Assembly (NCBI GenBank): GCA_965198065.1
Contig: CBDAON010000004.1
Coordinates: 1,856,001 to 1,920,000 of the forward strand
DNA length: 64,000 bases
Direction: 5' to 3'
Origin: Longimicrobiales bacterium
GTDB taxonomy: Bacteria > Gemmatimonadota > Gemmatimonadetes > Longimicrobiales > Gaopeijiaceae
Shown: positions 2,334 to 41,527 of the stretch, piece after piece
Layout of the letters: the number at the start of each line of letters is the position of its first letter
How positions within the stretch are numbered: the stretch's first letter is position 1
The notes under the pieces: model-generated
What the model was told of the DNA's origin: nothing
Seen by the model: the letters and a program-made list of their open reading frames with translations, nothing else
Databases searched by the model: none
Translations under genes and position numbers: made by a program

Positions 2334-2352
2334 CCAGGCCGGCGCCCGGCCG

Positions 2353-2407
2353 GCCAGGACCTCACGTCGGCCACGACCCTCACCTAGCCAGGACCTAACC
2401 TCGGCCA
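2353..2407. repeat. Three imperfect 17-bp tandem repeats upstream of the VOC gene
   Basis: gccaggacctcacgtcg / gccacgaccctcaccta / gccaggacctaacctcg / gcca. Confidence 0.75.
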
Positions 2408-2424
2408 TTCCGGAGACAGAAGCG

Positions 2425-3225: not shown

Positions 3226-3397
3226 CGGCCCGCCGATCATGCGATCGCTTTGATGGCAGGGTCCCGGGAGGGTGAGAACGGCTCCGCGTACGCGAGTCAC
3301 GGGCATTGATGGTGGACTCGGAGTCGGGCCGGCCCCGGTCGGTCCGGCTCCCGTCGCCACAGTTGCCACGCATGGACCACGGCCCCTAGCTTCGGGA

Positions 3398-4215: not shown

Positions 4216-4305
4216 CCGTTGCGCCCCGCGCGAACGGACTCGACTGATGATGCCCGCCCGGGTGGCGATGGCCCTCCCGTTGCGCCCCGCGCGAACGGAC
4301 TCGAC
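4216..4305. repeat. Two exact 29-bp direct repeats separated by 32 bp
   Basis: ccgttgcgccccgcgcgaacggactcgac at 4216-4244 and 4277-4305. Confidence 0.9.
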
Positions 4306-21868: not shown

Positions 21869-22294
21869 TTGAAGAGACAAAAGCTGATCGAGCGCCTTAA
21901 CGGGGATCTCGCCGGCGAGTACGGCGCGATCATCCAGTACTCGACCTACGCCGCGATGGCCACGGGCCCGTACCGGCCGCAACTCACGCAGTTCTTCCTT
22001 GCCGAGATCGCGGACGAGCAGGGTCACGCCCAGTTCCTCGCGAACAAGATCGTAGCGCTGGGTGGGGAGCCGACCACAGTGCCGAGGAGCGTGCCGGCCG
22101 CGCCCAGGAACCGGGAGATGCTGGAAGCCGTGCTCGAGGCTGAGCGGAGAGCCGTCGCCGATTACACCGAGCGCGCCAAGGAAGCGGAGGCGTTCGGGGA
22201 CAAGGGCCTGGTCGTTCAGCTCGAGGACATGGTGCGGGACGAGAGCGCCCATGCGGAGGAGACGGAGCGAATCCTTCGCGACTGGCCGCTCTGA
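21869..22294 (+). CDS. Ferritin-like di-iron domain protein
   Basis: TTG after AGGAGG; LAGEYGAIIQY, DEQGHA, ERRAVADY, DESAHAEE. Confidence 0.85.
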   Translation: MKRQKLIERLNGDLAGEYGAIIQYSTYAAMATGPYRPQLTQFFLAEIADEQGHAQFLANKIVALGGEPTTVPRSVPAAPRNREMLEAVLEAERRAVADYTERAKEAEAFGDKGLVVQLEDMVRDESAHAEETERILRDWPL

Positions 22295-22374
22295 TCCGGC
22301 CCGGTCATCCGGCCGCCCTCGCGTCGACCGGTTGTTATCGGCCGTTGGCTCGTGCCCTCGAGAGAGTTACCGCT

Positions 22375-23244
22375 CTAGGCAGAAGTCACCATCTCGTCGA
22401 AGTAGTCTGACAACGTCCGAGTGCCTCGAGCTGGCACAACAAGGTCACGCACGGACACATCGGCATAGAACGCAGTGATGTCTCCCACCCTGGGGTTGAA
22501 CGGTTTGATAATTCTGGCTCCGAGTCTGACCAGCCCTGGTGGGATGCGGCGCACTTTCAAAGGTCGCCCAAGCGCCTCCAGCGCGAGTTCAGCAATCCTC
22601 CGGCGCGTTAGCACTTCGGGGCCTCCTGCGAGCACTTCACGTCCAGCTCCTTCGATCGCATAGACACAGACCTCGGCAAGGTCTACATCGGCGATCGGGT
22701 TCGTCTTCGCAGCCCCATCCCCGATGATTGGTACCGGGCCCCTCCGAGCATACTGCATGAACTCCCCGAAGGCGGAGAGGAACCCAGGGGGCCGCACCAC
22801 GGAGTGGTCGATATTGGCTGCGGCGAGTTTTCGCACTACGGCCTCATGTGCTGCTATGTACCGGAGGTGGCCCAGTGCCTCATGGCCCGCAACGCTGACG
22901 TACACGAAGCGGGTCACTCCCGCCCGAACCGCCGAGTCGATCAGGTTGAAGTTCGCAGGCGTATCGACTTGGTCGTACGAGCGACGACCAGCGGCCATGT
23001 TCGGGGACACGCTGGCGCCAAGGCACGAAAAGACGACATCAACCCCGCTGCATGCTTCGTTGGTCACAGACGGATCGAGGGCGTCACCGTGGCAGACCTC
23101 GACGTGGCCCATGACAGCTTGAGGCAGGTCCGAGCGATGGACCAAGGCGGTCACTGCGTGTCCGCGACCGAGCAGGGCCCGAAGGACGTACTGACCCAAT
23201 GCACCCGCGGCACCTGCCACCAGAGTTCGACCTGATGTGACCAC
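22375..23244 (-). CDS. NAD(P)-binding atypical SDR/NmrA-like oxidoreductase
   Basis: VAGAAGALG Rossmann motif, RFVYVS, VVRPPGF; visibly lower GC. Confidence 0.82.
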   Translation of the reverse strand: MVTSGRTLVAGAAGALGQYVLRALLGRGHAVTALVHRSDLPQAVMGHVEVCHGDALDPSVTNEACSGVDVVFSCLGASVSPNMAAGRRSYDQVDTPANFNLIDSAVRAGVTRFVYVSVAGHEALGHLRYIAAHEAVVRKLAAANIDHSVVRPPGFLSAFGEFMQYARRGPVPIIGDGAAKTNPIADVDLAEVCVYAIEGAGREVLAGGPEVLTRRRIAELALEALGRPLKVRRIPPGLVRLGARIIKPFNPRVGDITAFYADVSVRDLVVPARGTRTLSDYFDEMVTSA

Positions 23245-23311
23245 CTGTCAGAGCAATACGAACGGCAGCGCGAGGGCGAATTCGAGTACGACGAAAGGAG
23301 CCGGCATGGCC

Positions 23312-23851
23312 TCAGAGCCAGCGACGTACCCGACGCTTGTAGGCCAGGTAGTCCTCGCCGAACTTCCGTTCCAGGTACTCCTCTTCAGGCAGGATCACGA
23401 GTTGCTGCAGGACCCACCAACAAATCGGGGTGAGCAGGAGGATCCAAGGGTTCATGAGAAGAATCGCGAAGCCGAGGCAGGCGAGAATCATCTGCAGATA
23501 CATAGGGTTGCGTGTGAAACGATAAGGCCCGTGCTCGATGATTCTCTTGGTGGGGTCCCACGGCTTCTCGCTCTCACCCGCCCTGCGAAACAGCAGAACG
23601 GACCATAGGCCCACCCCGAAGATCGACCCACATATCACGATTCCTCCGACCCAGTAGCGTACCGAAGGGGAAACCCCGAGCCCGACGTCGAGGGGCCAAA
23701 GGTAGTCGAGCAGAACGCCCAGCAGGATCGTGGCCAGCGGAACCCCGGGCGGGAACACCTTCACCGCGGCAGCGTCCCTTGTCCCGGGCGCCTCCGTCTC
23801 CCCTCCAGGCGATTCCCCCTCGCGCCCAGATGGGCTCTGCCTAGTCGGCAT
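23312..23851 (-). CDS. Isoprenylcysteine carboxylmethyltransferase-family membrane protein
   Basis: GPYRFTRNPMYL, EEEYLERKFGEDYLAYKRRVRRWL. Confidence 0.9.
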   Translation of the reverse strand: MPTRQSPSGREGESPGGETEAPGTRDAAAVKVFPPGVPLATILLGVLLDYLWPLDVGLGVSPSVRYWVGGIVICGSIFGVGLWSVLLFRRAGESEKPWDPTKRIIEHGPYRFTRNPMYLQMILACLGFAILLMNPWILLLTPICWWVLQQLVILPEEEYLERKFGEDYLAYKRRVRRWL

Positions 23852-23887
23852 TCTCGACTCCAGCGAATCCCAGTCCGCGCCTGAAGG

Positions 23888-24109
23888 TCAACACAAAGAG
23901 GCCTTCCCAACGCTGCTAGACTTTCGATACGAACGGCGCAGAAACCAGACTAATGGAACACCTACAATAGTGCTGTAGAGTGCCCCCAAAATGCCAACAT
24001 CTTTGGCGTAAGTGGCGAGGAGCCAAACGCCACCGCCCACCCGGAGCGGGTCAGTGTCTGTCAAACCATGATAGGCAAAAAGCGCCGGGGAACTGGCAGC
24101 GCCCACCAA
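23888..24109 (-). CDS. Small hydrophobic hypothetical protein or remnant
   Basis: Hydrophobic segments, lower GC, adjacent to tRNA fragment 1. Confidence 0.3.
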   Translation of the reverse strand: MVGAASSPALFAYHGLTDTDPLRVGGGVWLLATYAKDVGILGALYSTIVGVPLVWFLRRSYRKSSSVGKASLC

Positions 24110-24209
24110 AATGCCCGCTTCGTGTGCCTCCTCAGGGGTGCACCCACTTCGTCATAGCTTTCGGGCACTCATCTCGTGTCCCAGAGTCCCAACACTCGTC
24201 CGACTTCGG

Positions 24210-24253
24210 TAGCGCGCCCGACAGGATTCGAACCTGTGACCTTCGGCTCCGGA
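24210..24253 (-). repeat. tRNA-Arg(CCG) 3'-half fragment, copy 1 (att-like)
   Basis: Minus strand TCCGGAGCCGAAGGTCACAGGTTCGAATCCTGTCGGGCGCGCTA: anticodon loop, T-arm, acceptor 3' strand; no D-arm. Confidence 0.9.
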
Positions 24254-25118
24254 AGCTCCGGTGCCCGTGCTCCTGGCTGAAGCGGATGGGCCGGACGATC
24301 TCGGCCCCCGCCTCTTCCATCCGCTCGAATACGGGATCGGTGTCGGTGTAGGAGAAGGCGAGGTGGTCGATGGCCGAGCCGTCGGTCACGCCCAGGTCCC
24401 GGTCCACGCTCGGCGGATACCAGTACGGGCGCTCCTCGTCCGGATCCTGGGCCTGCCAGATGATCACGTTGATGTTGTCCACCCGGAGCACCTGGTTCGC
24501 CGAGCCCCGCGGCTCCATCCCAAGATGCCTCTCGAACCAGCGGGCGGTGGCCTGGGGGTCGTTGGCCAGGAGGTGGATGTGCTCGAAGCGGTGGTTGCGG
24601 CTCCCGGTGTAGACCTCGATCACCTCACCGTCGGGGCCCCAGAAGTACATGTAGTTCTCGTCGCTTCCCCTCAGCGACGAGATAGGGGTCTCCACCTCGA
24701 TCCCCTCCCGGGTCCGCCATTGGAACTCGGTCTCCCCGTCCACGCCGGCCCAGCCTACGTGCCAGAGCGCCGTCCCCAGGTGCGTGCGGGGTGACTGGGC
24801 GACCTCGTCGAGGAGGAGGAAGGAGCGCTCGGTGAAGAGGGCGGGGGATCGGTCCCGGTACATCACCTCGTAGGTGCCGAAGAACTTCTCATAGTAGTCG
24901 ATCGTCGCCTGACGATCGGTGACGTTCAGGTGCAGGTGATGGAAGCCCGCTGTCTCCACCTGCATGGCCGGGGAGGACGTGCCCGGCCAGGGGAGAGCGA
25001 CGAAGAGGACGAGGGCGACGAGAGCCATCCCGAAGCCAGTGTAAGCTCCGCCGGGGAGACGCCGGCCGGCCCGCTCCCCGAAGCTCGGGAGACGACCTCC
25101 GTCAGCCCCGGTCGCCAT
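24254..25118 (-). pseudogene. Secreted multi-domain VOC protein, C-terminus cut by the tRNA fragment (ORF reads through to 24132)
   Basis: FHHLHLNV, WHVGW, GPDGEVIEV, EHIHL, IDHLAFSY; last module stops at GHRSF, then tRNA-derived RSRRSQVRILSGA. Confidence 0.75.
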
Positions 25119-25194
25119 TCCTCGTCATCGTGAGAGCCGTGCGGACCACAGCCATGACTCCCGGGGGTCCCCGGAGGCGCGCCCGCGCAACATC

Positions 25195-26340
25195 CTAGAG
25201 ATCACTGCTGTCCGACGCAGCGTCGGCCTCTTCCCCCTCCTCGCCCTCGGGCTCCACCAGCTCTCCCTCCTCGAAGCGCCGCTCGCCGCGGTTGGCCGAC
25301 TGTTCCAGTTGCTCCGTCACCTCTTTCAGGAGATCCTCTGGAATCGGATCCTGGCCGACCACGTGGTTCATCGGCTCCACCGGGGTGTAGTCGAGCCAGC
25401 CGTTCCCCATCTCGGCGTAGGTGGGCAGCCCGTATGGCGTGTCCGACGTAGGGTCGGGATTGGCGGGATTGAACTCGGAGTTGTCCCACGTTGGGGTCCA
25501 GAGGAGCTTCGAGCCGGCGGGCGCGACCGGGGGATCCTTGAAGACGTACATCCGCTGCCACTCGAAGTGGTACTCGGGCACGTAGAGGAGGAGCTCCCTC
25601 CGGCCGTCCGGATACTCGAGCTCGTACTTCGCCTCCTTACCCAGATAGTGCATGTGGGGCGTGAGCGAGAGGATGTAGGTGTCCTCCTCGAACTCGAACT
25701 CCCGCGTCAGCTCGTACGCTGGATGGCCGGCGGGGATGACGAAGTCGTTGCCGACGCTGAGCACGGACCGGCGGACGAAGTGCTGGATCGTGTCTCCCTC
25801 CTCGTAGAAGATGATGGCGCCCCTCGACGCGTCGTGGAACGCCGTGCCCGGGCCGGGCTCCTTGTTGTAGTGCATCCCCAGGCGGACCCCGTCCACCGGA
25901 GGCAGGAGCTTAGCGAAGCCGTCGGGATAGACGTAGGGATCCCAACCGGGTGCGATGCAGCCGAAGGGCTCGCCGCAGGTGTGGTGGACGTGATCGCTCC
26001 CGGCCCGGAGCTCAGACGCCTTGATCCAGCGTGGCTCCGTGTGTTCCTCGGGGACCACGAGGTTGATGCCGACGTTCAGGTCGGTGAGGTCGTCCTCTAC
26101 GAAATAGGGCTCCGCGAAGCCCATCACGAGGTCCGGCTCGCCGATCCACCACTCACCTCTCTCCGCCACCTGTTTCTCGACCATGGCGAGGTCGACCGAC
26201 GCGTTCGCCGGATCACCCTCCGGAGCGCCACCCTTGCCCCATGCGATGATGGTGTTCTTCTCTTCCGGCGTGAGGTAGATCTCGCCCACGAAGGTCCCCT
26301 CGTGAACGGGGTCGGCGTGCCACGGCGGCATCCGGCCCAT
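25195..26340 (-). pseudogene. Copper type II ascorbate-dependent monooxygenase-like protein, N-terminus lost
   Basis: RMPPWHAD, DHVHH, MHY, PHMHYLGK, YHFEWQ, WDNS..NPANPDP, EM; begins abruptly at the IS1595 remnant with no signal peptide or CxxCH. Confidence 0.7.
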
Positions 26341-26344
26341 CTCA

Positions 26345-26510
26345 ACCTGTCTTGTCGCTTGGTTCCTATCGGACAGCTTGGCACATGGCGCACCGGATCA
26401 GAATGGCGATGCGTGCCGAACCACTGGCTGGTTTGCTCAAGGGCACCGTAGAGGCCGACGAGACGTATGTGGGTGGTCGTAGGAAGGGCAGCAGGCCCGT
26501 GACCGGGCAG
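26345..26510 (+). mobile_element. IS1595-family transposase internal fragment
   Basis: LGSYRTAWHMAHRIRMAM..LKGTVEADETYVGG. Confidence 0.85.
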
Positions 26511-26740
26511 GGACGATCGCTGGGCTCGCCGAACCGCCGAGCCCGCCGCCGCTGAACCGGGAGCCGGCCTCTCCCTCCTCCACACGAGGCCTTCCGGCGA
26601 CCGGCTCACGTAGGACGCCAGGGCCCAGAGATTGTGTTCGATCTCCTCGATCTCCACCGGCGAAACCGACGTGTTACGGCCGCGCTGGACGGTGTTCTTG
26701 AAGATGCGTTCGCCCCCGGAATCACCAACTCGGTCATCAG

Positions 26741-26855
26741 CAGGAGTAGTGATGTATAGCCAGGGTGAAGGCGTCCTCGAGGACGAAGCCGAAGCTAAAC
26801 GCTTGTATCGACTGGCGGCCGAGCAGGGAGATGCTCTAGCCCAGACCAACCTCAG
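26741..26855 (+). pseudogene. Isolated Sel1-like repeat shard
   Basis: VMYSQGEGVLEDEAEAKRLYRLAAEQGDALAQTNL. Confidence 0.75.
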
Positions 26856-27070
26856 GGTGACTCTCGCCCAACGCTGGTTTCGGTGTCAGGTGCAGGGTAC
26901 GCTGGGGAATGCGTTGCCGGAACGTTCCGGCGCCCGTAGACTCCGACCCACACCTCTAGACGCCGACCCACGCGACCGGCCCCTGAAAAGCCGGACGGTC
27001 GTCCCGAGTCTTTCTCATCCTCAGTATGGGAGCGCACATCATGGGCACGCGCACCATGTTTGAGTCCCCT

Positions 27071-28207
27071 ATGCGCCTCGTTTCGTCCATCTCGGTCCTC
27101 CTGGGTCTACTGACTGCAGCACCGCTGGCGGCCCAGTCGCCCGGGGACGTCCTACGCGGCGATTTCCCGCAGCTCGCGGCCCTCTTCGACGCGTTCGATG
27201 TCACGCACGGGGCCCTGTTCGAACGGCTCGCCGAGATCACAGCCTCGCCCGCCTCCCAGGACGGTCAGGACCAGCTCCGAGAGATGCTCATGATGCAGGC
27301 GAACATGACTATGGAGCAGATGATGGTAATGGGAGCGGGAGACATGGACATGCCCGGAATGGCGATGGGCCCCTTCGGCGAGCTCGAGATGGGCGCCCTG
27401 ATGCAGCTGACTGAGCATACTCGCGCCGAGCACACGGCGTCCGCGGCCGACAACGCGTTCTCGAACAGCGAGCCGTTGACCCCCCGCACAGCCGCGGTGA
27501 TCCAGCGTGGTCGTGACTTCGAGGCCCGCATCTACGACATCTACGCCGACAATGGGATCACCGACAAGAACGCGGCCGTGGACGCAGCCGTCGCCGACTA
27601 CCTGAGCGAGCCCGATCTCGCGGTCCCCTCCTGGGCCAAGAGTCCCTCGATCCTCTACGGTCACCCCTTCGCCTCGGCCTTCCAAACGGGATATCCCAGC
27701 CTGAGTGGGTTGATCTGGGCCTCTCAGTGGCTTCAGCTCGCGGCCCTCGAGCCGCTGATGCTGGGAGGCAGTGGGAGTACGGTGGCGGCGGGAGTCGAGA
27801 CGACCATCGAACGGTTCTGGAGCAAGGTCGACGGAATGCAAGGGATGTCGATGCTTCCGACCGAGTTTCCGGCGGCTCCGGCGATTTCTCCCGTGCTCTA
27901 TACTCGCCACCCCGAGGCCGCGATCATCATCGACAACCTGAACCATCTCGAGACGGTGATCGCGGATGTCCTCGTGGATCCCGATGTGCAGGATCGCAGT
28001 GGCTCAATCGACGGGGCCGTCGCGGAGTACACGGACCCAGAGTCGAACCTCGCCGCAGACCAGATGGAGTACGTCCTCTCAGCCCTTCGGAATGGAATCT
28101 TCAACCAGGGTGGGCCCGCTCTCGGCGAGCTGGACGATTCCGAGAGGAACCGGTCCAGAATGCAGATGGAGATGAGAGGCCACATGGTCATGCCCGGGAT
28201 GAACTGA
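27071..28207 (+). CDS. Secreted Met-rich hypothetical protein; start may be 27026-27071
   Basis: Signal peptide MRLVSSISVLLG..LAAQ; Met clusters EMLMMQANMTMEQMMVMGAGDMDMPGMAM and MQMEMRGHMVMPGMN. Confidence 0.75.
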   Translation: MRLVSSISVLLGLLTAAPLAAQSPGDVLRGDFPQLAALFDAFDVTHGALFERLAEITASPASQDGQDQLREMLMMQANMTMEQMMVMGAGDMDMPGMAMGPFGELEMGALMQLTEHTRAEHTASAADNAFSNSEPLTPRTAAVIQRGRDFEARIYDIYADNGITDKNAAVDAAVADYLSEPDLAVPSWAKSPSILYGHPFASAFQTGYPSLSGLIWASQWLQLAALEPLMLGGSGSTVAAGVETTIERFWSKVDGMQGMSMLPTEFPAAPAISPVLYTRHPEAAIIIDNLNHLETVIADVLVDPDVQDRSGSIDGAVAEYTDPESNLAADQMEYVLSALRNGIFNQGGPALGELDDSERNRSRMQMEMRGHMVMPGMN

Positions 28208-28370
28208 CCGGGTCACCTCTCGATTGAACAGTAGAGGTTGAGCGGCTGCTTCATTCGACGGCTCCTCAGAGCTCCCGCTTCCCGTCGCCGGCCAGCGGGC
28301 CGCCGCCAAAGCCCTGACAGAGTGGCTCGACCGTGCCGCCCTTTCAGTCGCCGAATGGGCTCCGGCCCGG

Positions 28371-31150
28371 TCAGGGGTTCAGCCAGTAGTTCACCTTGAT
28401 CATGAAGATGTTGTCGGGCGCGACCTGGAACATGTCGCCCGCGTCTCGGCCAAGGTCGAACGTCCCCGCCCACGGCTGACCTCCCGAGGTTCCTGGGCCG
28501 TTGACCGAGTTGATCCTCCGCTGCTGCCACACGAAGAACAAAGTGGACCCCGGCCTCCACTCCCACCGAAGCACCGCGTTCCCCACCAGGCTGCGGTAGC
28601 TGAAATCTCGGTTCGACACCAGAAACGCCTCGGCAGGTCCATTGCCGTCGGGGTCGACCTCGTAGCCCCCTTCTTCTCCAGACCCCACGGCACCTACGTC
28701 TTCCCCGTACTCGATAAATTCGAAGGTGTTCGGTGCCCTGAGCTCCTTCAGGGCACCATAGTCGCCGGTCGATACGAACGGCTCCAGATAGAGCTGCAGC
28801 GAGAGAGTTGGCGAGAACGTCAGGTTCACCCGGGTCTCGAGGGACAGCCTGTTCCGGTCGATCCCCGCGAATACGTACCGGGTGCCGTACGTAGCCGCCG
28901 CCAGCGGATCGTCCACTCGAATAATGTATTGGGCGGCGGTGCGGGACCAGGAGTACGAAGGGGAAACGTCAATCTGAAGCGTCTCTTCGAACCGGGCCCC
29001 CAGGTTCACCTGGACGTTTTGGGTCCACCCCCCTCCGTCGTCCGAGCCCCATCCATACGTGGCTCTGGCCACGACCGCCCGTCGGGTATCCGAGTTCAGG
29101 TTGAACGACCCGGACCACCCGCCCGGAGTGCGGGCCATGGGACCCCCTCTCGTCAGACGATCATCCCTCGATCGGGCCGTGTAGACGACGCGGGCAGAGG
29201 TGCCCCAGTAGTTCAGAAACTCGACCCGTCCGATCCCGTTGACATTCGCGAAGAGCCGGTCGCCCGCGAGGTTCCAGATCCCGTTCCCCCCACCCAGAAT
29301 CGCGCTCCACGACCTCAGGTACCGCCCCGGGTTCGGCTGCGTGTACTGGTAGTGCGTGTCCAGGAGCACGCGGTCCGCGTTCGAATGGAACCCGAGCTCG
29401 TTCACATCGTATCCGGGGCTCACGACGGCTACGCCGTTCCGCATCGTGAAGTTTCCGGCCTGTTTGCCGAAGTACGCCATGGCGTAGTATCCGCTGAGGG
29501 ACGTCGCGGTTGGGTCGACCTCCACGTGCTCCGCGTTCGGCCTCTGGTAGTACCGGCTGGACGCCTCCTGGAGTCGAGTGATCGCGGCCGATTCTCCCCT
29601 CACCAAGCTTCCGGAGAGCAGGCTAGTGAAGAGCCAGACGCGGTCCTCGGACTCGCGCGCGAAATCGACTCCCGTCGCGTACGCCGCGGAGGGGAGCTGA
29701 CCGGCCAGTATCGTTCCGGACGGGTCACGGTTCACGGCCGTGGCGATCATGCCGAATCGAGTTCGTCCCCCCCGGATCTGTCGGCGCACACGCGCAACGA
29801 AGAAATTGGTAGGGGGCTCGACCGTCAGCTCGCGAGCCACGCCGTCGCCCTCCATGTACGACGCGCTCTCCTTCGCCGTCACCGCCTCCAGAATTCCGAT
29901 GGACCAGCCGTCTCCGACTCTCCCCGTCACCTTGGCGGCGGCCGCGATGGTGGTGGCGGTCGGCACGTCCGCGAAGGCCGCGTCGGAAGGGGGGGAGCCC
30001 CTGGGCGGCCTCCCGATTCGACGGGAATACACGAGGTCGGGCCCCGTGCCGGCGCTTCCTCGGGGACCTTGCTCACCGAAGGTGAAGATGTCCGCACCCT
30101 CGACGAAAAACGGCCTTCGCTCGCTATACCTCGTCTCGAACGCCGTGAGATTGATCACCGACGGGTCCACCTCCACCTGGCCGAAGTCGGGGTTGAACGC
30201 CGCATCCAACGTCACGTTGGAGCTGATCCGGTACTTGAGGTCCAGGCCCATGTCGGCGAAGTGGTCCGACCCGCTCCGGTAGGGGTTTCCGAAGTCGACG
30301 CCGGAGGGGCCCTCGAGCTGCAAGTACTCCCCTCGGGCCGCCACGTAGGGGAGGAGCTCGAGTCTCTGCCCGGGCTCGATCCCCTGGATCCCGTCGAGGT
30401 GGGCGAAGCGGGATACTCCCGCTCGCTCCAACACGGGTGTGAAGGGAAACGTCGCGTTCTCCTGGTTTCTATAGATGTTTCGCTCGATCTGGATCCCCCA
30501 CACCTGCTGCTCCTGGGGACTAAAGCGAAGCTGGCTGAACGGTATCCGCATCTCGACCGTCCAACCGGTCGGGGTGAGCTCCGCGGCCAGGTCCCAGACC
30601 GGCTCCCACGAGGCGTCGCCGCTTCCGGTACCGTTCCCCGTTACGATCGCGTCGCCCTTCACGCCGGAGGGTTGGTCCAGAACCGGTAGGCCGTCTCGTG
30701 ATCGTGATAGCTGTCGAGCAGGACGATGAATACGTCCGAGTCACCCAGACCCGCGTCCCTACGTGCGAGACGGGTCGTTACCGGATTCCGGTCATCCAGG
30801 ACCGCTCCGACGTAGATCGCGTCGTCGTCGTATCCGAGGCGAACCTCGGTACCCTCCGACACCGCGGAACCCTCGAAGGGGAGGGTCTGAACGAAGTCCG
30901 TGATGGGTGGGGCTTCTGACCAAACCTGCTCATCGAGCACCCCGTCAATCGAGATCGACCCGTCAAAGCGGATTGCTCGCGCTCGCCGCGCCAACGCGTG
31001 GTCGTAGTCCGCTTCGGAAGCTTGCGCGCTCACACCCATCTGTCCATCCACGACGTCTTGCGCGTGGAGGTTCGGCGGATGTAGCGCGAGGAGGGTAGCG
31101 ATCGAGAGCAGGCCGAGCCTCGACGGCGGCGCCGGTAGCAGAGGGTTCAT
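28371..31150 (-). pseudogene. DUF5916 / CBM9-like domain outer-membrane protein, paralog A; one frameshift near 30670
   Basis: IDGVLDEQVW, DSYHDHETAYRFWTNP | SGVKGD, EMRIPFSQLRF, NPDFGQVEVDP, LRWEWRPGST, KVNYWLNP; the break may be a sequencing error. Confidence 0.8.
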
Positions 31151-31317
31151 TAGAAACGGGGCAGGGGTAGCGAATCTCAGAGAAGCCGCAAAGCTCTGTG
31201 GATCCTGTCGATAGAGCAAGGATTGGTTGGTCGGCGCCGCTGGCCGAGCCCAGGGTCCCGACCTAACATGTGGCTCGTGCGCGTTCGCGCGGGTGATAAG
31301 GTCGCGTAGGAGGAGCC

Positions 31318-32355
31318 ATGAAAGCTATGGGGCGTCAGTGGCCGAGGGCGGTTGCGGGGTGGCTCGCGATCGCCGCCCTGGCGGCGTGCGGTGCCGAGAG
31401 CGGTGATGAAGAGGCAGTGCGGACGACGACGTACCCGACGATGACGACCGTGGAGGAGTACCGTCGCGCTATGGAGGAGCTCTCGAACTGGGGCCGCTGG
31501 GGCGAGGACGACGAGCTCGGAGCTTCGAACCTCATCACCCCGGAGAAGCGTCGTGCTGCGGCCACCCTCGTAACCGAAGGACGGAGCGTCTCGCTAGCGC
31601 ACGACGTCGTGCAGGAGGAAGCGATCGACGGGGGCACGGTTCTGGATCGACAGGTGCTTCGGGTGAGCGCGACCGGCGCCTCCGACCAGTATCAGTACAC
31701 GGGAAGCTATCACGGAACGATCCACAGCCATCTCGACGCCGTCGACTGCCACATCATGTTCGAGGGGCAGGGCTACAACGGGGTGTCAGCGGAGGAGATC
31801 GAGGCGGCCGACGGGTGTCCACGCGGCAGCATCAACGCGCTCAAAGACGGCATCGTCACGCGGGGCATCCTTTTCGACGCGACGCTGCTGCCGGGCAAGG
31901 CCACCGCCGAGGGGTGGCTGGAGCCCGGGACCCCAATCCACGCCGCCGACTTGATCGCGTTGGAGGAGATCGAGGGCGTGAGGGCCGAGCCGGGAGACGT
32001 GATCCTGCTCTACACTGGGCGTTGGGCGAGGCGCGCCGCGCTGGGGCCGTGGCCGACATCGGAGGGCGTGGCGGGATACCATGCCGACGTCGCGTACTTC
32101 TTAAAGGAGCGAGGCGTCTCCTTCATCGGACACGACATGTGGAACGACGTCTCCCCGCACGCCGACAAGGAGCGGCTCCCGCTCCACCGGCTCGCGCTCG
32201 TGTCGCTCGGCGTGGGGATCTTCGACAACCTCGACTTCGAGCACGTAGCCCAGGTGGCCAGGGAGTTGGGTCGTTACGAGTTCCTCTTCACGGCCGCGCC
32301 CCTCAGAATCGAGATGGGGATGGGGTCTCCGCTCAACCCGATCGCGACGTTCTGA
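31318..32355 (+). CDS. Cyclase-family (kynurenine formamidase-like) metal hydrolase, lipoprotein
   Basis: Lipobox LAAC; NWGRWGEDDELGASN, HGTIHSHLDA, GDVILLYTG, GSPLNPIATF. Confidence 0.88.
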   Translation: MKAMGRQWPRAVAGWLAIAALAACGAESGDEEAVRTTTYPTMTTVEEYRRAMEELSNWGRWGEDDELGASNLITPEKRRAAATLVTEGRSVSLAHDVVQEEAIDGGTVLDRQVLRVSATGASDQYQYTGSYHGTIHSHLDAVDCHIMFEGQGYNGVSAEEIEAADGCPRGSINALKDGIVTRGILFDATLLPGKATAEGWLEPGTPIHAADLIALEEIEGVRAEPGDVILLYTGRWARRAALGPWPTSEGVAGYHADVAYFLKERGVSFIGHDMWNDVSPHADKERLPLHRLALVSLGVGIFDNLDFEHVAQVARELGRYEFLFTAAPLRIEMGMGSPLNPIATF

Positions 32356-32388
32356 GGGGGGGGAGACAAGCCCCCTCCTCCCTTTCTC
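32354..32388. terminator. Hairpin between the cyclase stop and tRNA fragment 2
   Basis: gagggggggg-agacaag-ccccctcctc followed by cctttct. Confidence 0.5.
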
Positions 32389-32389
32389 A

Positions 32390-32432
32390 CGCGCCCGACA
32401 GGATTCGAACCTGTGACCTTCGGCTCGGGAGG
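32390..32432 (-). repeat. tRNA-Arg(CCG) 3'-half fragment, copy 2
   Basis: 37-nt core cgcgcccgacaggattcgaacctgtgaccttcggctc identical to copies 1 and 3; one mismatch in the anticodon loop. Confidence 0.9.
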
Positions 32433-32932
32433 ACGCGAAGCCGTATCAAGCTGCGACAGGGGCCGCCTACCGCCTAGGTTTTGGCCCTAACCCGCCGGCT
32501 GGCGCTTGCCGACGCTCGCCCACGCTGGCACAACTTCCGCACAATGCCCGCGCGCGCACGATGGTTCCCGTCGGTGCGTCTGCACCCTGATTCTCGTGGG
32601 CGCGCGCTACGTTCTGGCTTGGTAGGTGGGGGGCGACGTGCGGGCCCCCACGTCAACACCCGAGAGTGGGGCAGGAAACGTGGAGCTCGTCTGAAAAGGG
32701 TCAGCAAGCGAGTCGGGGGCCCCTCCTTCCGCGAGGCGAGGCATCCGGAGACGACAGTTGTCGTCGCGAGTGCCGGCGCGGAACAACCGGCTCGCACGAA
32801 GAGTGGGCTGCGTGCTCGACTTCGTTCGTACGAGAAGCCCCGAGGGTCACCTCTTGTCCGGGACCCCCCCGCTGGAGACCTTTGTCCACTCGATACCGCA
32901 CACACGCGCCGCTTCCGATCGAGCCCGCTTTC

Positions 32933-35825
32933 ATGACGTCACCGACCCTCCGCATGAGCCGGGACATACGGTTGTCGCTCGGTTTCCCCCTCGCCGTTTC
33001 CCTGGCTGCCGCCCTGGGAGTCTCGCTGGCCGTGCCCGCCGGCTTGGCGGCCCAGGATGTCCCGGGGACCGGGGCGGACCAGGACACAGTGAGTGACACC
33101 CAGGACGGCCAGGCGGGAGGCGGTGCCGGGGACGCGGTTGTCGCCGGCGTTTCCACCGAGGACTACAACCACGCCGAGGCGCCCCGGGCCATCGGAGTGC
33201 GGCTCGAGGGTGGGAGCATCTCCCTGGACGGGATCCTCGACGAGGCTGCGTGGACCAACGCACCGCCCATCACCGACTTCATCCAGATCGTGCCCTTCGA
33301 AGGCCGGCCCGGATCCGAGCGGACCGAGGTCCGGATCCTGTACGATGACGAGGCCATCTACGTGGGGGCGGACCTGGGCGATTCGCAGCCTGTCTCGACC
33401 CAGCTCGTGCGGCGGGACGGTGGGCTCTCTGCGTCGGACGCTTTCGAGATCCTCTTCGATAGCTATCACGAGCACGAGACGGCGTATCGCTTCGGCACCA
33501 ACCCGTCGGCGATCCGAAGCGATGCCGTCATCTCGAGCGGGGGCGGAGGCTTCGGCGGCAGGGGCGGGGGCGGGGGGGACTCGTCATGGGATCCGGTCTG
33601 GGACGTGGCCACCGAGATCACAGACCGGGGGTGGAGCCTGGAGATGCGGATCCCGTTCAGCCAGCTCCGCTTCCAGCCCACCGTGGAGCAGACGTGGGGG
33701 ATCCAGGTGGAGAGGACCATCCAGCGGAACCAGGAGAGGGTCCTCTACCCCTTCGTCCCGTCCCTGGAGCGGGGCGGCATCTCCCGGTACGGGCACCTGG
33801 ACGGGCTCGGCGACCTGGAGACGGGCAGGCGCCTGGAGCTCCTCCCCTACCTGACGGCCCGGGGCGAGTACCTCCAGCTCTCCGATCCAGACGGGGTCGG
33901 GTTCGACAACCCGTACCGGAGCGGCTCCGACCTCTTTGGCGATGTGGGGCTCGACTTCAAGTACCGGCTGGGCATGAATCTGACCCTGGACGCCACGGTG
34001 AACCCCGACTTCGGTCAGGTCGAGGTGGATCCGTCGGTCATCAACCTCACGGCCTTCGAGACCCGCTATCAGGAGCGGCGCCCCTTCTTCGTGGAGGGCG
34101 CGGACATCTTCCAGTTCGGGGAGGGCGGCCCCAGGGGAAGCGTCGGGAACCCGCCCGCCCTTCTCTACTCCCGGCGCATCGGGCGGCCCCCCCATGGATC
34201 GGCTCCCTCCCATGCCGTCTTCGAGGACGCTCCCGGGAGCACAACGATCTATCAGGCCGGAAAGATCTCGGGCCGGGTGGGAGAGGGCTGGTCCCTGGGT
34301 CTGCTGGAGGCCGTGACCGCCGAAGAGACGGCGGCCTATGTGGACGACGGACGGCAATCCGGGCGAGGTGGCCGGGAGCCCCTTTCCAGCTACGTGGCGG
34401 GGCGCCTCCGGAAGCTCGTCGGCGAGGGCGACACGCGCTTTGGCCTCATCGCCTCTGCCGTGAACCGGAGCCTCTCGGACACGCCGCTCGTCGATCGGCT
34501 GCACGAGTCGGCGTACACGGGCGGCATCGACTTCGCGCACGAGTGGGGCAACCGGGAGTGGCGGCTGAGCGGCGTCCTCGAGGGCAGCCGGGTGCAGGGC
34601 AGCGCCGAGGCCATCGCCCGGACCCAGCGCACCTCGTCCCGCTACTACCACCGGCCCGACGCGGACCATCTGGAGCTGGACCCCACGGCCACGACCCTGA
34701 CGGGCTATTATGCCTTCGTGGAATGGATGCGGCAGGCGGGCACGTTCTCGCCCCGGGTCGTGCTGGCGGCTGTCAGCCCGGGCCACGAGGTCAACGACCT
34801 TGGATTCCAATCCGAGGCCGACCGGATCATCTTCGACACCCACTTCCAGTACAACCAGCCCCTGCCGGGCGACTTTCTCCGGTCCTGGAGCATCGGCGGC
34901 GGACCCGATGCGAAGTGGAACTACGACGGCCGGCGCGTCTTCACCAACTTCAATGCCAGCTCGAACTTCCAGTACCTGAAAACTACTGGAGCACGTCGCT
35001 TCGTCTAGAGCACGAGCCACGCTATTACGACGACCGCCTGACCCGGGGCGGCCCCATGGCCGAAAGGCCTCCTAGCTACGTCGCCAACTTCAGCATCCGG
35101 TCCGACAGCCGTCTGAACACGAGGTACAGCGCGTCGGTGAACTGGAGCGGCGACGAGGCCGGATCGTGGGGCTTGAATTACGGGCTCAGCCTCGACACCC
35201 AGCCCCGGGAAAGCCTGAGCATCAGCGTCGGGCCCGGCCTCCGTACCTCGTACGAGGAGGCCCAGTATGTGACCAGTGTGGAGGACCCCACGGCCACCGC
35301 CCCTACGGTCGCCGCTACGTCTTCGCCGGGCTGAACCGGACCACGCTTTTCTTCGACACGCGGGTCAACGTCACCTTCACCCCGGACCTCTCGCTCCAGC
35401 TCTGTCTGGAGCAGCCGTTCATCTCCATCGGGGATTACGGCCAGCTACGGGAGTTTGCCGAGCCGGACAGCTACGACTTCTTCGACTACGGCGGCGAGGC
35501 CGGCACGCTGGAGCGGAACGACGACGGTTCCTACCAGGTGGACCCCGACGGCGCGGGGCCGGCCGCCGACTTCCGCTTCTCCAACCGGGACTTCAACTAC
35601 CGAAGCCTCATCGGCAACGCGGTGCTCCGCTGGGAGTGGCGCCCCGGTTCCACCCTCTACCTGGTGTGGCAGCAGCGGCGGATCGACTCGGTCACGGGCG
35701 CCGATGACACCGGGAATTACGGGTGGGTCGGCGACTTCGACCTGTCGCGAGACACCCAGGACATGTTCTCCACCAAGCCAGACAACGTCTTCGCCATCAA
35801 GGTGAACTACTGGCTGAATCCGTAG
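32933..35825 (+). pseudogene. DUF5916 / CBM9-like domain protein, paralog B; frameshifts near 34980 and 35300, probable compensating pair near 34345-34378
   Basis: Same motifs as paralog A spread over three frames (..NFQYL | NYWSTSLRL..EDPTATA | YGRRYVFAG..KVNYWLNP). Confidence 0.8.
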
Positions 35826-35874
35826 GCCTGCTCCCCCTTCGGCCTAAGCCGTTGGGGGCCTTGTTCTTACTTCG

Positions 35875-35923
35875 TAGCGCGCCCGACAGGATTCGAACCT
35901 GTGACCTTCGGCTCCGGAGGCCG
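35875..35923 (-). repeat. tRNA-Arg(CCG) 3'-half fragment, copy 3 (longest; includes anticodon stem-loop CGGC-CTCCGGA-GCCG)
   Basis: 45 nt identical to copy 1; upstream sequence forms no D-arm or acceptor 5' strand. Confidence 0.9.
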
Positions 35924-36117
35924 CGGACGAGCGTCAGCCCGCGTCAGGCGATCGGAGAACGTCCAGCAACGGCGCCATTTCTCGTTTCGGACCTTTCGGG
36001 TTGCGTTCGCCAGCGTCAGGGGGGTTTGTCACCGCTATTGTCACCGCGGAGCTTCTGAGGAAGCGAGACATCAAAGGATCGGGATCCGGGTCTGGAGAAG
36101 CCGCGGGGGGGCCTGGG

Positions 36118-36592
36118 TCATGGCATCCACTTTTGGGGGAAGGGCCACGGCTTCACATCACCGGCCCCACCCCTCTTTAGGCGGCGCTTGTGCTCTGGGG
36201 CCATGCAGAGGCGGGCCATGAACGGAGCGGTGTGTCGCTTGGCGAACTGCTCCAGCTTGTGTCGTGACCGCACGACGTTCTCTGCGAGCGCCTTGTGGGA
36301 GTGTCTCCCAACGCAAAAGAACACCGCCGCTTCAGTATCAATGATAGCACGTACTTCGATCTCTTTCTTGCGAATTCCCGTTCTTCGTCAGACCAACCCA
36401 ACCGTTATCCGTGAGAGCAGAGAGCCACTCCTCATCCGGGGTACGGGCGCCAAAGCGTGGCTCGAACGGTACGACTTCCAGTCCGCCTCTACGAAGGATT
36501 CGGATGAACTCACAACTCTCCTTAGGCCCCAGGTCCCGATCGACAAGGTACGTGAGCGGCTCAGGCGGCTTCGAGGCGCCACGCTTCGTCAT
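36118..36592 (-). pseudogene. PIN-domain toxin (VapC45-like), frameshift near 36377
   Basis: YLVDRDLG, PDEEWL..GWVGLTKN | IRKKEIEVRAIIDTEAAVFF. Confidence 0.72.
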
Positions 36593-37056
36593 ACTCGGGT
36601 GCCGTCAGGCCGTAATCCTCGATGACGTGCCCGCGGGTCTCTCCGGCATCTACCCGGGAGATGATGGCAGACGTCCGGATTCCCGTCCTCGCTATAACGG
36701 GTCGCCCAAACGAAATCGTGGGATTCACAAGGACGAGCTTCGGGCCCTTCGGGCGCTCGCCTATCACGGGGTAGAATGCCGCCGAAAGCTTGTCGGGGCC
36801 GTACTCGATGCGCTTTCAGGTACTGTGCGAGTATCTCTCTTATGTACAGCTGACGGCTCCTGGAAAGAGGCATCAGTTGTCCAAGCGTGTCCAGAAAGAA
36901 TCCGCGGCCGTCGTGCCGGAAGTCCTGATGCAAGAACGGGCGGGCGATGCCGTAATCGCTTTGGGCCACCTCCAGAATACGAGCGGCCTGGGCGTACGAG
37001 TACGCCCCAAGGTCTCGAATGTCCGTTGCCGATCGCGGTGCCGTCATCCGAGCCAC
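36561..37056 (-). pseudogene. DUF433 antitoxin (VapB45-like), frameshift near 36815 and apparent internal deletion
   Basis: AYSYAQAARIL start of an HTH, ..QYLK | RIEYGPD.., NPTISFGRPVIARTGIRT..AGE..IEDYGLT. Confidence 0.75.
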
Positions 37057-37296
37057 CTAACCTATGATGCGGAGATCCTTCTTCTGTGCTTCCTTGTAGG
37101 TCTTCCGGACAGATTCGTTGAACTGCATGTCTAGGTAATCCGCCACCGCATCCCGAATCAGCCCTACCAGGGGGGGGTTCCCCGGAAGGTGATCGTGCAA
37201 GAAGTCGAGTCTCCGCTTCTGATCTGGGTAAAGGAGGGCCGAAACCTTCACCGTGTCCTTCTGCTTCGGCCTACCTCGGCGCTTTGCTTTTGCCAT
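37057..37296 (-). CDS. Small basic protein, ribbon-helix-helix-like
   Basis: MAKAKRRGRPKQKDTVKVSALLYPDQKRRLDFL..LIRDAVADYL; abuts the DUF433 gene. Confidence 0.6.
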   Translation of the reverse strand: MAKAKRRGRPKQKDTVKVSALLYPDQKRRLDFLHDHLPGNPPLVGLIRDAVADYLDMQFNESVRKTYKEAQKKDLRIIG

Positions 37297-37387
37297 TCCA
37301 TTTCTTTGTATTTTATTGCGTAATAATATGTAATCGTCCGGAAGAAACCACAAGTTACTCGCTGAGCGAACGTCGGTCCTCCCCGAG

Positions 37388-38207
37388 TCACCAGCCGCCG
37401 TAGAGACACCCCCATCTGAGGGGCGTGACCGCCGTGCGCCCGGTTCGAGCACTGCGGACCATCCAGTCGTTCGTGTAGACCCTCACCACGCCGGCATAGA
37501 CCCCGCCGTAAACCTCGACGGACGCCACGGACTGGATCGGGAGCGAATCGAGCTCACCGTAAGCGAAGTAGGACTTTCGCTCATCCACGCAAACGAGGAT
37601 ACGGCCCTCAGAGGCCGTCCTGAAGGAACGGAAGCGCGCCGGTACACAGAGCTCGGACGGGTCCCCCCGACAGGGCCCGATCATGGGGCTCCTCGTGCGA
37701 ACGAAGTCCAGCACGCTCCCGACGGCGAATCTGTCCAGATCGATTCGGTCTGCGGAGATCACGGATTCCGGAAACGCGTTCCGCCTGGCCGCGATGCGTT
37801 GCTCGAGCACTTCCATCCGCTCGATGAGCGCCTCAGCGTCCGCCTCATTCACGACGAGAGCCTCGATTCCCTCGAGCGGGATCGGATTGGGATCCAGGAG
37901 CAGGACCGAGGTCCTGGAAGGCGCGGCATCGTCGAGATCGAAGCGTTCTGGCAGGTAGCCGAGGCGCCGGGCGTAAATCGTGAAGGGCGCTCCGGGCTCG
38001 AGCGGGAGAGCGAACGCACCGAGGGAATCCGTCACGACCACCCTGGAGGAGTCGGCGGTGAGGACCCTGGCTCCGACGATCGGGGTCCCCGAGACCGCGT
38101 CCTCGACGCGACCGCGAAGGACGACGGGCACCTGGGCGCTGGCGGCCGAGGCCAGCAGCAGGTACGCCGAGGCCCCCCAGGAGCGCCCATCCGGACCGCG
38201 CTCGCAT
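37388..38207 (-). CDS. Secreted carboxypeptidase-regulatory-like domain protein; frameshift in a G6 run in the signal peptide (38173-38178)
   Basis: LRGRVEDAVSGTPIVGARV..TDSLGAF..RRLGY; removing one G gives MRARSGWALLGASAYLLLASAASAQ. Confidence 0.7.
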
Positions 38208-38283
38208 CACCGGCACAATGGGATGACGACGCTTCTCGAGGGAGTAAAGAAGGTCGGCACGCCAACTTCGCTAGATGGACACC

Positions 38284-40101
38284 TCACCACGTAATCCCCG
38301 CCTCTTCGAGTAACGCCTGGTATCGGGGGTCGTCGCGGAGGAGGTCCGAATGGTTCGACTGTGCGTCGTTAAGGGCCGTGATTCCGTGCAGTCCCTCTCG
38401 AACGATCTCTTCCAACAGCGCGAGGGCGCGCTCAGATTGCCCGGTCTCAGTGTACAGCCAACTCAGGCCCGGCCAATTCAATTCGACGTCGGAGAACCTT
38501 TGCAGCTGACCAGTTTGGTGGTAGCGTATCGCCGCTTCATACGCCCCTCTCCCAGCTTGAACGTCAACATTGGCGAGTTCCAGATACCTGCCAAATGCTG
38601 CCAGGCCCTCCTCGTATTCGCCGACCTCCAACAGCGCCCCCGATAGATCAAACCAGCCACCCTGCCATTCTGGGGCCAAGGCTATGGTTTCGCAGTGTTG
38701 TTCGATCGCCTCGTCAATACGCCCAGCTCCCCACAAGGCCCTACCCAGAACCAGCGAATTCACCCGGGCGACCGGATCGAGTTCAAAAGCCCGCTCTGCA
38801 TGAATTACTCCCTCGATCGCGCTTCCAGTACTGTAAAGAGAAATTCCCGTACCATGAGGTGCGCGGCCGCATATCCTGGGTTCAGATCGATCGCCGACTC
38901 GAACTCCTGTTCAGCTCCTTCCCATTCGCCACCGTACCACAACCCGAAGGCCAGAGAAGTGTGAGCCATGCCGAGGGAGGGGTCTAGTTGTACAGCTCTG
39001 CGGGCTGCGATGAGTCCCTGGTCAACATTCATCCGCCGATCCTGGGGGGTAGCGGTCACATCGTAATAGGCCACCAAAAAATAGGAGTCCGCGAGCCCGG
39101 AGTACGCTTCTGCGTACTCCGAGTCCAGCTCTATCGCAAGCTCGAACTCGGTGATCGCGTCGAGAAGTTGCTGCGCGGTGCGTTGGCTAACGAAAAAACG
39201 GCCTCGCTGATACGCTTGGAACGCCTCAGGAACGGTGGTCCCCTGTGCCACGAGCGGCGTCTCTGCCCCTCCGGCCAGCGCGACCTGAAGTTCGTCCGTA
39301 ACTGCTCGGGCTAATGCATCCTGAATCGCGAAGACGTTCGAAGCTGGGCCGTCGATTGCCTCCGACCACAGAACAGCCCCAGTTGCAGCCTCTACAAGCC
39401 GAGGCCGGACACGAACCGTCTCACCCACCTGCTGAAGGTCGCACTCCAGCACTGTTGCAACATCCAACGTCTCCGCGATTTCCTCGATGTCGGCGTTCAA
39501 CTCAAGCAGCGCGATGACTGAGGTTATGCCGATGACCTTGAGGCCGGGCAGCTGCGCCAGGCCACCAATGATCCCTTCGGCGAAACCTTGAGTGAGAGGG
39601 GTCTGATCTCCTGGCGCGCTCACATCGGTGCATGGCATCACCGCGACCGACGGGTCAATGGACATCGGAGCCTCAGCGATCGTGGATCCCGTCCCGATCG
39701 CGCCCCCGAGGATCACCCAACCCGTCCCCACGAATCCAAGCAGCGCGAAGGCCGCTACGCCTCCGAGGAAGGCATGCCGCCAAGTGAAGAGACGGGACTG
39801 TGGACTCCACTTGATCCCCCGTTTCCTGTGCACCGGCTGTGCTCTTCACGGGTTGGGCCTCGTGTCCCGGACCACCGTGCTGCACGAAGGCGGTGGCCAG
39901 CACGAGAGGGAGACCGACGATGAGGAGGCCCAGAGCAAACCGGGGGAACCAGTCCGGTAGGCCGAGCGCGTCGCCCAGGGTGCCCACGCCTCCCAAGACA
40001 GCCCAAGACGCGACCGCATAGATCCCAAGCACCTGCCACAGACTACGGCGGTGGATCTCAGCGATCAGACGCTTCAGAGGATTGTCGGAGGGGTCGCTCA
40101 T
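38284..40101 (-). pseudogene. Membrane-anchored TolB-like/TPR protein; frameshifts near 39800 and 38840-38860
   Basis: IHRRSLWQVLGIY | RLFTWRHAFLGG, SVAVMP, AIQDALARAV, EAFQAYQRGR, TPRs | LRDDPRYQALLEEAG. Confidence 0.78.
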
Positions 40102-40320
40102 AGTCCCGCACATGAAGAGAAACGGGAACTGCGCCCATCTGTGAAGACGCGGGAAAGATGCCGGGCGTTCAGGGGGGCGGCAAGAAAGATGTAGCGCAAC
40201 TGGGGGAATCAGCCATCACCCCCAGCCGGCCACCGTGCTCCGGGTCGTGGAGTACGCAAGGTAGGGGGATCGCCGCGCTCCATTAGGGCTGGCCGGGATG
40301 CGTTCCGGATGCAGGCCCGG

Positions 40321-40362
40321 AAAACACCAAAGCGCCACAAGGCCAGGAAGCCTTGCGGCGCT
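40321..40362 (-). terminator. Rho-independent terminator after tRNA-Val
   Basis: AGCGCCGCAAGG-CTTCCTGG-CCTTGTGGCGCT then TTGGTGTTTT on the minus strand. Confidence 0.75.
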
Positions 40363-40375
40363 TCGCCTCTCTCAA

Positions 40376-40448
40376 TGGTCGCTGCTGGACTCGAACCAGC
40401 GACCCCCACGATGTGAGCGTGGTGCTCTACCAGCTGAGCTAAGCGACC
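40376..40448 (-). tRNA. tRNA-Val(CAC)
   Basis: GGTCGCTTAGCTCAGCTGGTAGAGCA-CCACG CT CAC AT CGTGG-GGGTCGCTGGTTCGAGTCCAGCAGCGACCA; full cloverleaf. Confidence 0.97.
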
Positions 40449-40510
40449 GGGCCTCGAGACATGCCCCTCCGACCGACGTGGACGAAGGCGCACGCACCGC
40501 TATGGGAATA

Positions 40511-40583
40511 TACCCCCACGGGGAATCGAACCCCGGTTTCCTGGCTGAGAACCAGGTGTCCTAGGCCACTAGACGATGGGGGC
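40511..40583 (-). tRNA. tRNA-Glu(CTC)
   Basis: GCCCCCATCGTCTAGTGGCCTAGGACA-CCTGG TT CTC AG CCAGG-AAACCGGGGTTCGATTCCCCGTGGGGGTA. Confidence 0.97.
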
Positions 40584-40641
40584 CGAAGAGCGACCCTCAG
40601 TTTCAAAGAACCGGGATTATAGGGGCATCCCACCACCCGCG

Positions 40642-41436: not shown

Positions 41437-41527
41437 GGTGTCCTCCCCTATCTTGCCCGCGGGTGCCGCGGGGGGGACGGTATCGACAGGCATAGATATA
41501 CTCGGGGGGATCGATGGAGTGTTCCAC

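Follow-up and report, generated by a model that had tools for sequence, protein, structure and literature searches.

What places three halves of one tRNA gene in a row on a bacterial chromosome, with genes between them and no integrase alongside? The question is raised by a 64-kb stretch of DNA (hereafter, the window) from a Longimicrobiales bacterium of the Gemmatimonadota (assembly GCA_965198065.1, contig CBDAON010000004.1, positions 1,856,001 to 1,920,000). Coordinates without a prefix are those of the window; the prefix C4 marks those of the source genome, and G numbers denote relatives. A preliminary description of the window had reported three same-orientation 3' halves of tRNA-Arg(CCG) with a 37-nt core, delimiting units of about 8.1 and 3.4 kb, and had tentatively interpreted these units as non-autonomous cassettes moved in trans, similar to those of an integron. 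We consider it probable that the repeats are attachment-site (att) scars of stacked integrative elements, which lost their integrases and were later parted from the tRNA and the newest integrase by a chromosomal rearrangement.

The three halves are found as described, starting at 24213, 32390 and 35878. Each reads, in reverse complement, as the 3' half of tRNA-Arg(CCG), so that the tRNA sense lies on the minus strand; all start at the anticodon loop and share an exact core of 37 nt. Copy 1 (24213..24253) and copy 3 (35878..35923) are identical to the intact gene of this genome at 41 of 41 and 46 of 46 positions, respectively. Copy 2 (32390..32432, 43 nt) has a single mismatch at 32427, which falls within the 7-nt anticodon loop, the expected overlap region; short-read unitigs of runs X12 and X17 confirm the substitution, as they begin at 32397, 30 nt before it. 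Tyrosine recombinases usually require identity in the overlap region. The copies bound unit A (24254..32389, 8136 nt, 65% guanine-cytosine (GC) content) and unit B (32433..35877, 3445 nt, 68% GC). No match to an integrase or an integrase remnant was obtained in either unit, in agreement with the earlier account, and their serial accretion is likewise borne out. The distance from the stop of the convergent gene is 34 nt for copy 2 and 52 nt for copy 3, with a hairpin between, where 35-50 bp had been reported; no clear terminator was found at copy 1. The same layout of tRNA end, hairpin and convergent stop is present at island-free intact tRNA-Arg genes (G106, G136, G006).

According to the preliminary description, neither an intact tRNA-Arg nor an integrase was present. 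This holds within the 64 kb, where the tRNA genes are tRNA-Val and tRNA-Glu only and no tyrosine-recombinase match was obtained; it does not hold for the genome, where both lie at C4:2066624-2067926, 175 kb off and on the opposite strand. The copies sit 175-186 kb from the intact tRNA-Arg(CCG) and are inverted relative to it as assembled. The intact gene (C4:2066624-2066699, plus strand), the single true copy in the genome, is located just after rnpB and is followed on its 3' side by a terminator, a paired AGTAAC motif and then the integrase gene. The latter is an open 373-codon frame that starts about 105 nt after the tRNA and matches PF00589 and PF02899. Its closest named relatives are Gemmatimonadota records, and among the 34 tyrosine-recombinase matches of the whole genome it is the only integrase of this clade. 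The same integrase (78-82%) occupies the same tRNA in G154, G260 and G327. The proposal that the halves are scars of tyrosine integrases crossing over in the anticodon loop is upheld.

Further evidence comes from short paired repeats near the element ends. Among 15 non-duplicate loci of at least 52% identity, two of which may represent one strain, 11 have an RGTRACR pair 30-36 nt ahead of the integrase start, compared with 1 of 11 more distant loci; the count required upstream sequence and omitted the locus studied here, four duplicates and nine loci without N-terminus or upstream DNA. Beside copy 3, a paired GGTGACA repeat (36027..36045, minus strand) lies 116-128 nt before the anticodon and fits the arm motif of the integrase clade. 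This arrangement, GGTGACA-N5-GGTGACA at -128/-116, lines up with right-end sequences conserved among 11 units of genus g17. C4 carries three strict pairs, one at copy 3 and two at the ends of a tRNA-Ser island. Single elements in G149, G043 and G289 carry matching pairs at both left and right ends. Lambda-type recombination is the established precedent for arm-binding sites of integrases; by this analogy and from their position, the paired repeats are putative integrase arm-binding sites. Since the arm motifs match and the genome holds one integrase of this clade, copy 3 is likely the right end (attR) of the integrase-bearing element that starts at the intact tRNA (C4:2066624). A second copy of the copy 3 arm region (88% over 50 nt) lies at C4:854284-854670 by a fragment of the same TPR gene, without a tRNA half. 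A metagenome scan with the integrase as query yielded 10 short loci, and in none of them were both ends of the element present.

The favoured sequence of events could be as follows. Each incoming circle would recombine in the anticodon loop, restore the tRNA and push older DNA downstream, leaving one tRNA 3' half behind the incoming element. The integrase gene adjoins the left arm, and one deletion could therefore take both, leaving right arm, tRNA half, terminator and cargo; this would explain why the right arm is kept and the left lost. Copy 3 would be the right end of an element whose left end and integrase stay at the tRNA; this element would have been split by an inversion, one breakpoint of which fell between copy 3 and tRNA-Val.

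The order of genes in relatives supports the displacement. Downstream of tRNA-Arg in the congener G001, and in the direction in which the copies point, homologues of 1.5-4.2 kb of the window and of C4 1.848-1.850 Mb are met at 22 and 30 kb. The first of these synteny markers, 1509-4213 in the window, contains a VOC-like gene between two paralogous genes that are 1880 nt apart and share 69-79% DNA identity. A single contig of G094 carries tRNA-Arg at 528 kb, then homologues of source 1.852-1.836 Mb at 570-597 kb, of 1.800-1.790 Mb at 632-641 kb and of 2.1045-2.109 Mb at 641-646 kb, which puts the homologues of the sequence left of the array 42-113 kb downstream of the tRNA. They are 64-73 kb downstream in G103, in the same direction as in G001 and G094. 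The far end of the block is joined to source 2.104-2.109 Mb in 4 of 5 genomes tested. The GC skew of the block at 1.79-1.892 Mb is -0.035, compared with +0.025 to +0.036 in neighbouring blocks on the same side, to the right of dnaA. From the synteny in three relatives and the skew, the array likely once stood directly behind the intact tRNA-Arg(CCG). The genes downstream of tRNA-Val map to 1.51-1.54 Mb in G001; one simple inversion is therefore insufficient and more than one rearrangement is needed.

The present junction lies to the right of copy 3. The sequence from 35924 to 40375 (62% GC, lower than the units) is an island remnant with the rearrangement junction and contains a broken toxin-antitoxin-like pair (presumably PIN-type; without Pfam match), a small DNA-binding-like open reading frame, a CarboxypepD_reg gene and a broken TPR gene. 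Next comes tRNA-Val(CAC) (40376..40448, minus strand), which today borders the right end of the tRNA-Arg element with its 3' side. Might an assembly error have created the displacement, the array truly standing right behind the tRNA and integrase as an ordinary tandem island array? The assembly contains frameshift errors and the genome dozens of near-identical insertion sequences, the order in relatives is contiguous, and short-read contigs stop short of crossing the whole junction. A repeat-driven mis-join has no substrate, however, because the junction region has no repeat in common with the other junction regions, and identity to its best paralogues is 79-98% along no more than 929 nt. Contigs moreover link copy 3 to 38156 with no differences, a parallel separation is seen in G154, where the gene block is on another contig behind its own displaced tRNA half, and many other displaced tRNA fragments exist in the source genome. 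We regard the error as quite improbable.

Very unlikely, in our estimate, is an inversion made by the integrase itself. In this scenario, an attP-like junction elsewhere, for example in the tRNA-Val island, and the intact tRNA would have stood in inverted orientation; their recombination would have turned 175 kb around and thereby created the present left att site (attL) beside the tRNA and the attR of copy 3. The 46 of 46 identity of copy 3 to the tRNA, the matching arms on both partners and a breakpoint inside an island that no homologous repeat explains agree with this, as does the fact that a flip between the two cores makes tRNA and array neighbours again, as in the ancestor. Chromosome rearrangements by integrases between att sites are known in tripartite integrative and conjugative elements (ICEs; PMC5882170). 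Yet a composite element would be marked by a displaced tRNA-Val(CAC) fragment, and none was found; inspection by eye of the small open reading frames near either element end revealed no excisionase. The final sequence is the same as with a breakpoint inside the element, and the two events are therefore indistinguishable here. Whatever its origin, the pair of ends is now inverted; recombination of attL with attR is therefore predicted to flip 175 kb and rejoin the tRNA to unit B, not to release a circle.

The content of the units bears on whether they could move by themselves. Unit A ends in a VOC/glyoxalase gene (24254..25118, minus strand), which is cut in its last beta strands exactly at the start of copy 1; its frame reads on through the tRNA half to 24132. 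Homologues extend 24-36 residues further in all 39 aligned sequences, the top 39 of 132 matches. The cut is within two bases of the anticodon loop, at the crossover point, and therefore suggests an integrase-made event at a secondary site, which may have been deletion or gene capture by the integrase acting within the VOC gene. No close VOC homologue was found in 313 family genomes at E <= 1e-50, and unit A is therefore untraceable as a native block; homologues of its other genes are at unrelated, scattered places in five relatives. Just downstream of copy 1, 68 nt (24134-24201) are 93% identical to the end of a small gene at C4:1233051-1233119, which adjoins an insertion sequence. Head-to-head recombination of cores via the palindromic CTCCGGAG was also considered and was rejected because the tRNA and the arm of copy 3 are both intact.

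In the order of the coordinates, the VOC gene is followed by genes for a 381-residue protein (25195..26340, minus strand) and a 393-residue protein whose start resembles a signal peptide (27026..28207, plus strand), both without Pfam match, with a remnant of a Sel1-repeat gene between them (26632..27063, plus strand; weak match below the cut-off). The preliminary label 'Cu-enzyme-like', which concerns the 381-residue protein, therefore has no Pfam match behind it. The CBM9/DUF5916 gene at 28371..31150 (minus strand) has one frameshift at about 30668, likely an assembly error, since contigs of X12, X14 and X17 have a base there. A putative cyclase gene (PF04199; 31318..32355, plus strand) converges on copy 2. 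Arm repeats were detected at neither end of unit A, including the unit-A side of copy 1.

Unit B was previously described as holding a single gene. One gene is indeed present, a CBM9/DUF5916 gene (32954..35825, plus strand), and it is not intact, being frameshifted near 34960 and 35286. A short-read contig of X12 covering both sites (34045-35903) matches the assembly with 0 differences and 0 gaps; the frameshifts are thus likely real, and the gene likely a real pseudogene. This gene stops 52 nt from copy 3, leaving no room for a left arm. At its right end the unit has a paired TTGTGC repeat (32528..32544, minus strand), which may well represent arm-type sites and differs from the arm motif of the tRNA-adjacent integrase. 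Both units thus lack a left arm and retain their att cores. With arms missing, the overlap of copy 2 mutated and cargo broken, units A and B look decayed and are predicted to be immobile as separate circles.

Related arrays were sought in the family. The tRNA pattern was matched in 253 of 314 family genomes, with at least two matches in 21 of 313 relatives, at least two of which show another tRNA. Ten of these 21 multi-match genomes were examined, together with G010 and G103 (downstream sequence) and three order-level genomes. Across 10 genomes, 8 of 21 units, each bounded on one contig, hold an integrase or its remnant. In G291, a 28-codon integrase C-terminus opens the smallest cassette-like unit adjoining an intact tRNA (one Fic gene in 2.08 kb). 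Behind the tRNA of G094, a remnant of 30 codons is left of the integrase studied here, and G154 has an 81-82% identical integrase at tRNA-Arg, then cyclase-like and DUF5916 genes. The units of relatives grade from integrase-bearing via remnant to integrase-less. Origin by deletion of the integrase is visible in sister units of G291, G146 and G289, and not in units A and B. One caveat concerns G289, a genome of 72% completeness with 10 copies, which may be a mixed bin.

Several observations weigh against decayed and displaced islands. By a tally made by hand, 13 of the 21 units show no integrase trace and might move in trans, and such units adjoin the intact tRNA in G039 (2.1 kb), G010 (5.8 kb), G103 (4.1 kb) and G289 (5.6 kb). 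Right arms are well conserved over the 11 units of g17 and the tRNA-Leu and tRNA-Cys arrays of the source genome, described below. The arm motif of unit B is unlike that of the resident integrase, and unit B's own integrase was not found. G132 places the gene block elsewhere than downstream of tRNA-Arg. The copy 3/tRNA-Val junction and the other junction regions have no repeat in common that could account for the breakpoint. No single contig spans 35924-40376, and 40246-40370 is without cover in 4 of 4 runs.

The first two of these points agree with the units being purpose-built cassettes of gene, terminator, one arm and tRNA half, moved in trans at an integron-like, lineage-wide collecting site. 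In relatives, several units of 1.5-4 kb hold one gene or one toxin-antitoxin pair; an intact integrase for tRNA-Arg(CCG) is present, and the source genome has three integrase-less triplets. Such cassettes are nevertheless unlikely. Unit A has no arm and unit B one, of a different motif; copy 2, common to both units, is mutated in its overlap region; and the cargo is broken and has homologues at unrelated places in five relatives. The left ends of the relatives' units form no conserved family and often hold integrase remnants or insertion sequences. In each of four runs, which come from 3 studies, cover extends to every one of the 30 bins of 22000-41500, with pieces inside both unit A and unit B; runs X1-X11, whose share of words was small, were left out of this comparison. 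Unit-wise absence was not seen in the four runs, whose contigs break at the 41-46-nt repeats and cannot reveal rare empty sites; no junction common to copies 1 and 3 appeared in the metagenome scan. X17 has no cover over 36074-37861, and coverage holes were not used as support. Considering also that the array has its cognate tRNA and integrase in the genome, likely adjacent to it until the rearrangement, we do not find the in-trans cassettes of the preliminary description supported. It had named ordinary decayed tandem islands as the finding that would speak against them, and this is largely what is observed. A broader version, also improbable, would be a lineage-wide gene-collecting system in Gemmatimonadota in which the integrase clade trims stacked elements at secondary sites and moves one-armed units in trans, with arrays at tRNA-Arg, tRNA-Leu and tRNA-Cys, and in which the split element (copy 3 and the intact tRNA) serves as a 175-kb integrase-driven inversion switch.

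Apart from its tRNA genes, the source genome contains 31 tRNA fragments, many of which lie far from the parent gene or are inverted to it. Two further integrase-less triplets of displaced 3' halves belong to tRNA-Leu(TAA) and tRNA-Cys(GCA) (C4:2803838-2813265 and 2707626-2725431), the parents being at C4 395770, with an integrase alongside, and at 2536961. Five of the six Leu and Cys copies have one common right-end sequence with TGTGCC repeats despite the different tRNAs. Their cargo includes glutamate-dehydrogenase-like and Fe-S-assembly-like genes (labels by eye). Halves of the 5' type, which represent elements of a rarer kind that restore the 5' end, were found for tRNA-Ala(TGC) (C4 2089377, 2093619, 1761048), tRNA-Val(TAC) (534770, 2444063) and tRNA-Gln(TTG) (929053). 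Eighteen tRNA genes are packed in 2.4 kb at C4:1710874-1713237, followed by a large mobile region of lower GC content. A second gene with two Bac_DnaA domain matches (C4:550316-551893, one 695-codon frame) exists besides dnaA at 1537219, and two exact 29-nt direct repeats, 61 nt apart, occupy an intergenic site at 4216-4305.

The tRNA-Arg copies of relatives show features of their own. In G039 (L015:4923-7121), the 2.1-kb unit directly behind the intact tRNA-Arg encodes an AAA_21 ATPase and RloB, and the tRNA copy overlaps the end of rloB. The tRNA-Arg(CCG) of G001 (L023:19480-19520, G001:C38) has an altered 3' T-stem strand, possibly a damaged att-derived end, and was missed by the pattern searches because of this change. 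At L026:15411, L087:6203, L093:10166, L103:2175, L105, L038 and L032 (G103, G284, G289, G140, G010, G092 and G156, respectively), short insertions of some 60-160 bp interrupt the T loop of tRNA-Arg copies, separating TTCGA from ATCC, or repeat the final 16 nt, in some cases tandemly. They look like miniature gene-less elements using a T-loop site.

The array is thus a real feature with an ordinary mechanism, a new instance with displaced geometry. The lesson is mainly one of caution: when a limited stretch of sequence shows an array of tRNA halves without an integrase, this array can be the distal end of an ordinary island stack that has been parted from its tRNA and integrase, and island finders with an orientation filter reject such cases. 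For uncultured Gemmatimonadota, a hotspot at tRNA-Arg(CCG) and a clade of integrases whose arm motifs can be recognised are documented as well; the literature searched gave no description of them. If active, the inverted attL/attR pair would be a simple test case for integrase-driven chromosome inversion.

In integrons, the integrase IntI and attC hairpins serve to collect small integrase-less gene units by one recombination site. The array is similar in having small integrase-less units gathered at one recombination site. It differs by the absence of IntI from the window, by boundaries that consist of tRNA halves and arm-type direct repeats in place of attC hairpins (for which no model was run), by mixed gene orientation and by decayed units, and is not an integron.

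Closer parallels are the accretion-and-decay model of cis-mobilizable elements (CIMEs) and ICESt1/ICESt3 (PMC5704250, PMC7563491) and the tandem arrays also treated in PMC5812530. CIMEs are integrase-less cargo units of 1-13 kb between att sites, stacked at a tRNA 3' end, often with metabolic cargo and with the most decayed units farthest from the target; units A and B likewise stand in tandem, keep cargo and lack integrase or transfer genes (no relaxase search was made). By definition CIMEs keep attL and attR (PMC5704250, PMC7563491). Here the cores are kept, the left arms are gone in both units and the right arm in unit A, and the overlap of copy 2 is mutated. With arms partly lost and one core mutated, the present units are more decayed; unlike CIMEs, they have no identified conjugative parent and are stacked apart from the target gene. 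Islands at tRNA genes (tDNA), as treated by Islander (PMC4383910) with an accretion model and an anticodon-centred site A, resemble the locus in the integrase beside the intact tRNA, the displaced 3' fragment from the anticodon loop and the tandem arrays. Islander demands an integrase per island and a fragment in tRNA orientation, and the array as assembled fails both. The tycheposon islands of Prochlorococcus, with partial tRNAs and fragmented integrases (10.1101/2020.12.28.424599), belong to another phylum, and no tycheposon replication or excisionase modules were seen here. Their hotspots are similar in the serial integrations divided by partial tRNAs, the fragmented integrases, the scattered partial tRNAs left as relics and the associated chromosomal inversions. 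The tripartite ICE3 of Mesorhizobium (PMC5882170) is regulated and transferable, with three integrases and three directionality factors, whereas the present element has one integrase and no conjugation genes that were seen. The likeness is one of geometry only: in both, parts of an element lie apart after inversions, and recombination between attL and attR rearranges, or here would rearrange, the chromosome.

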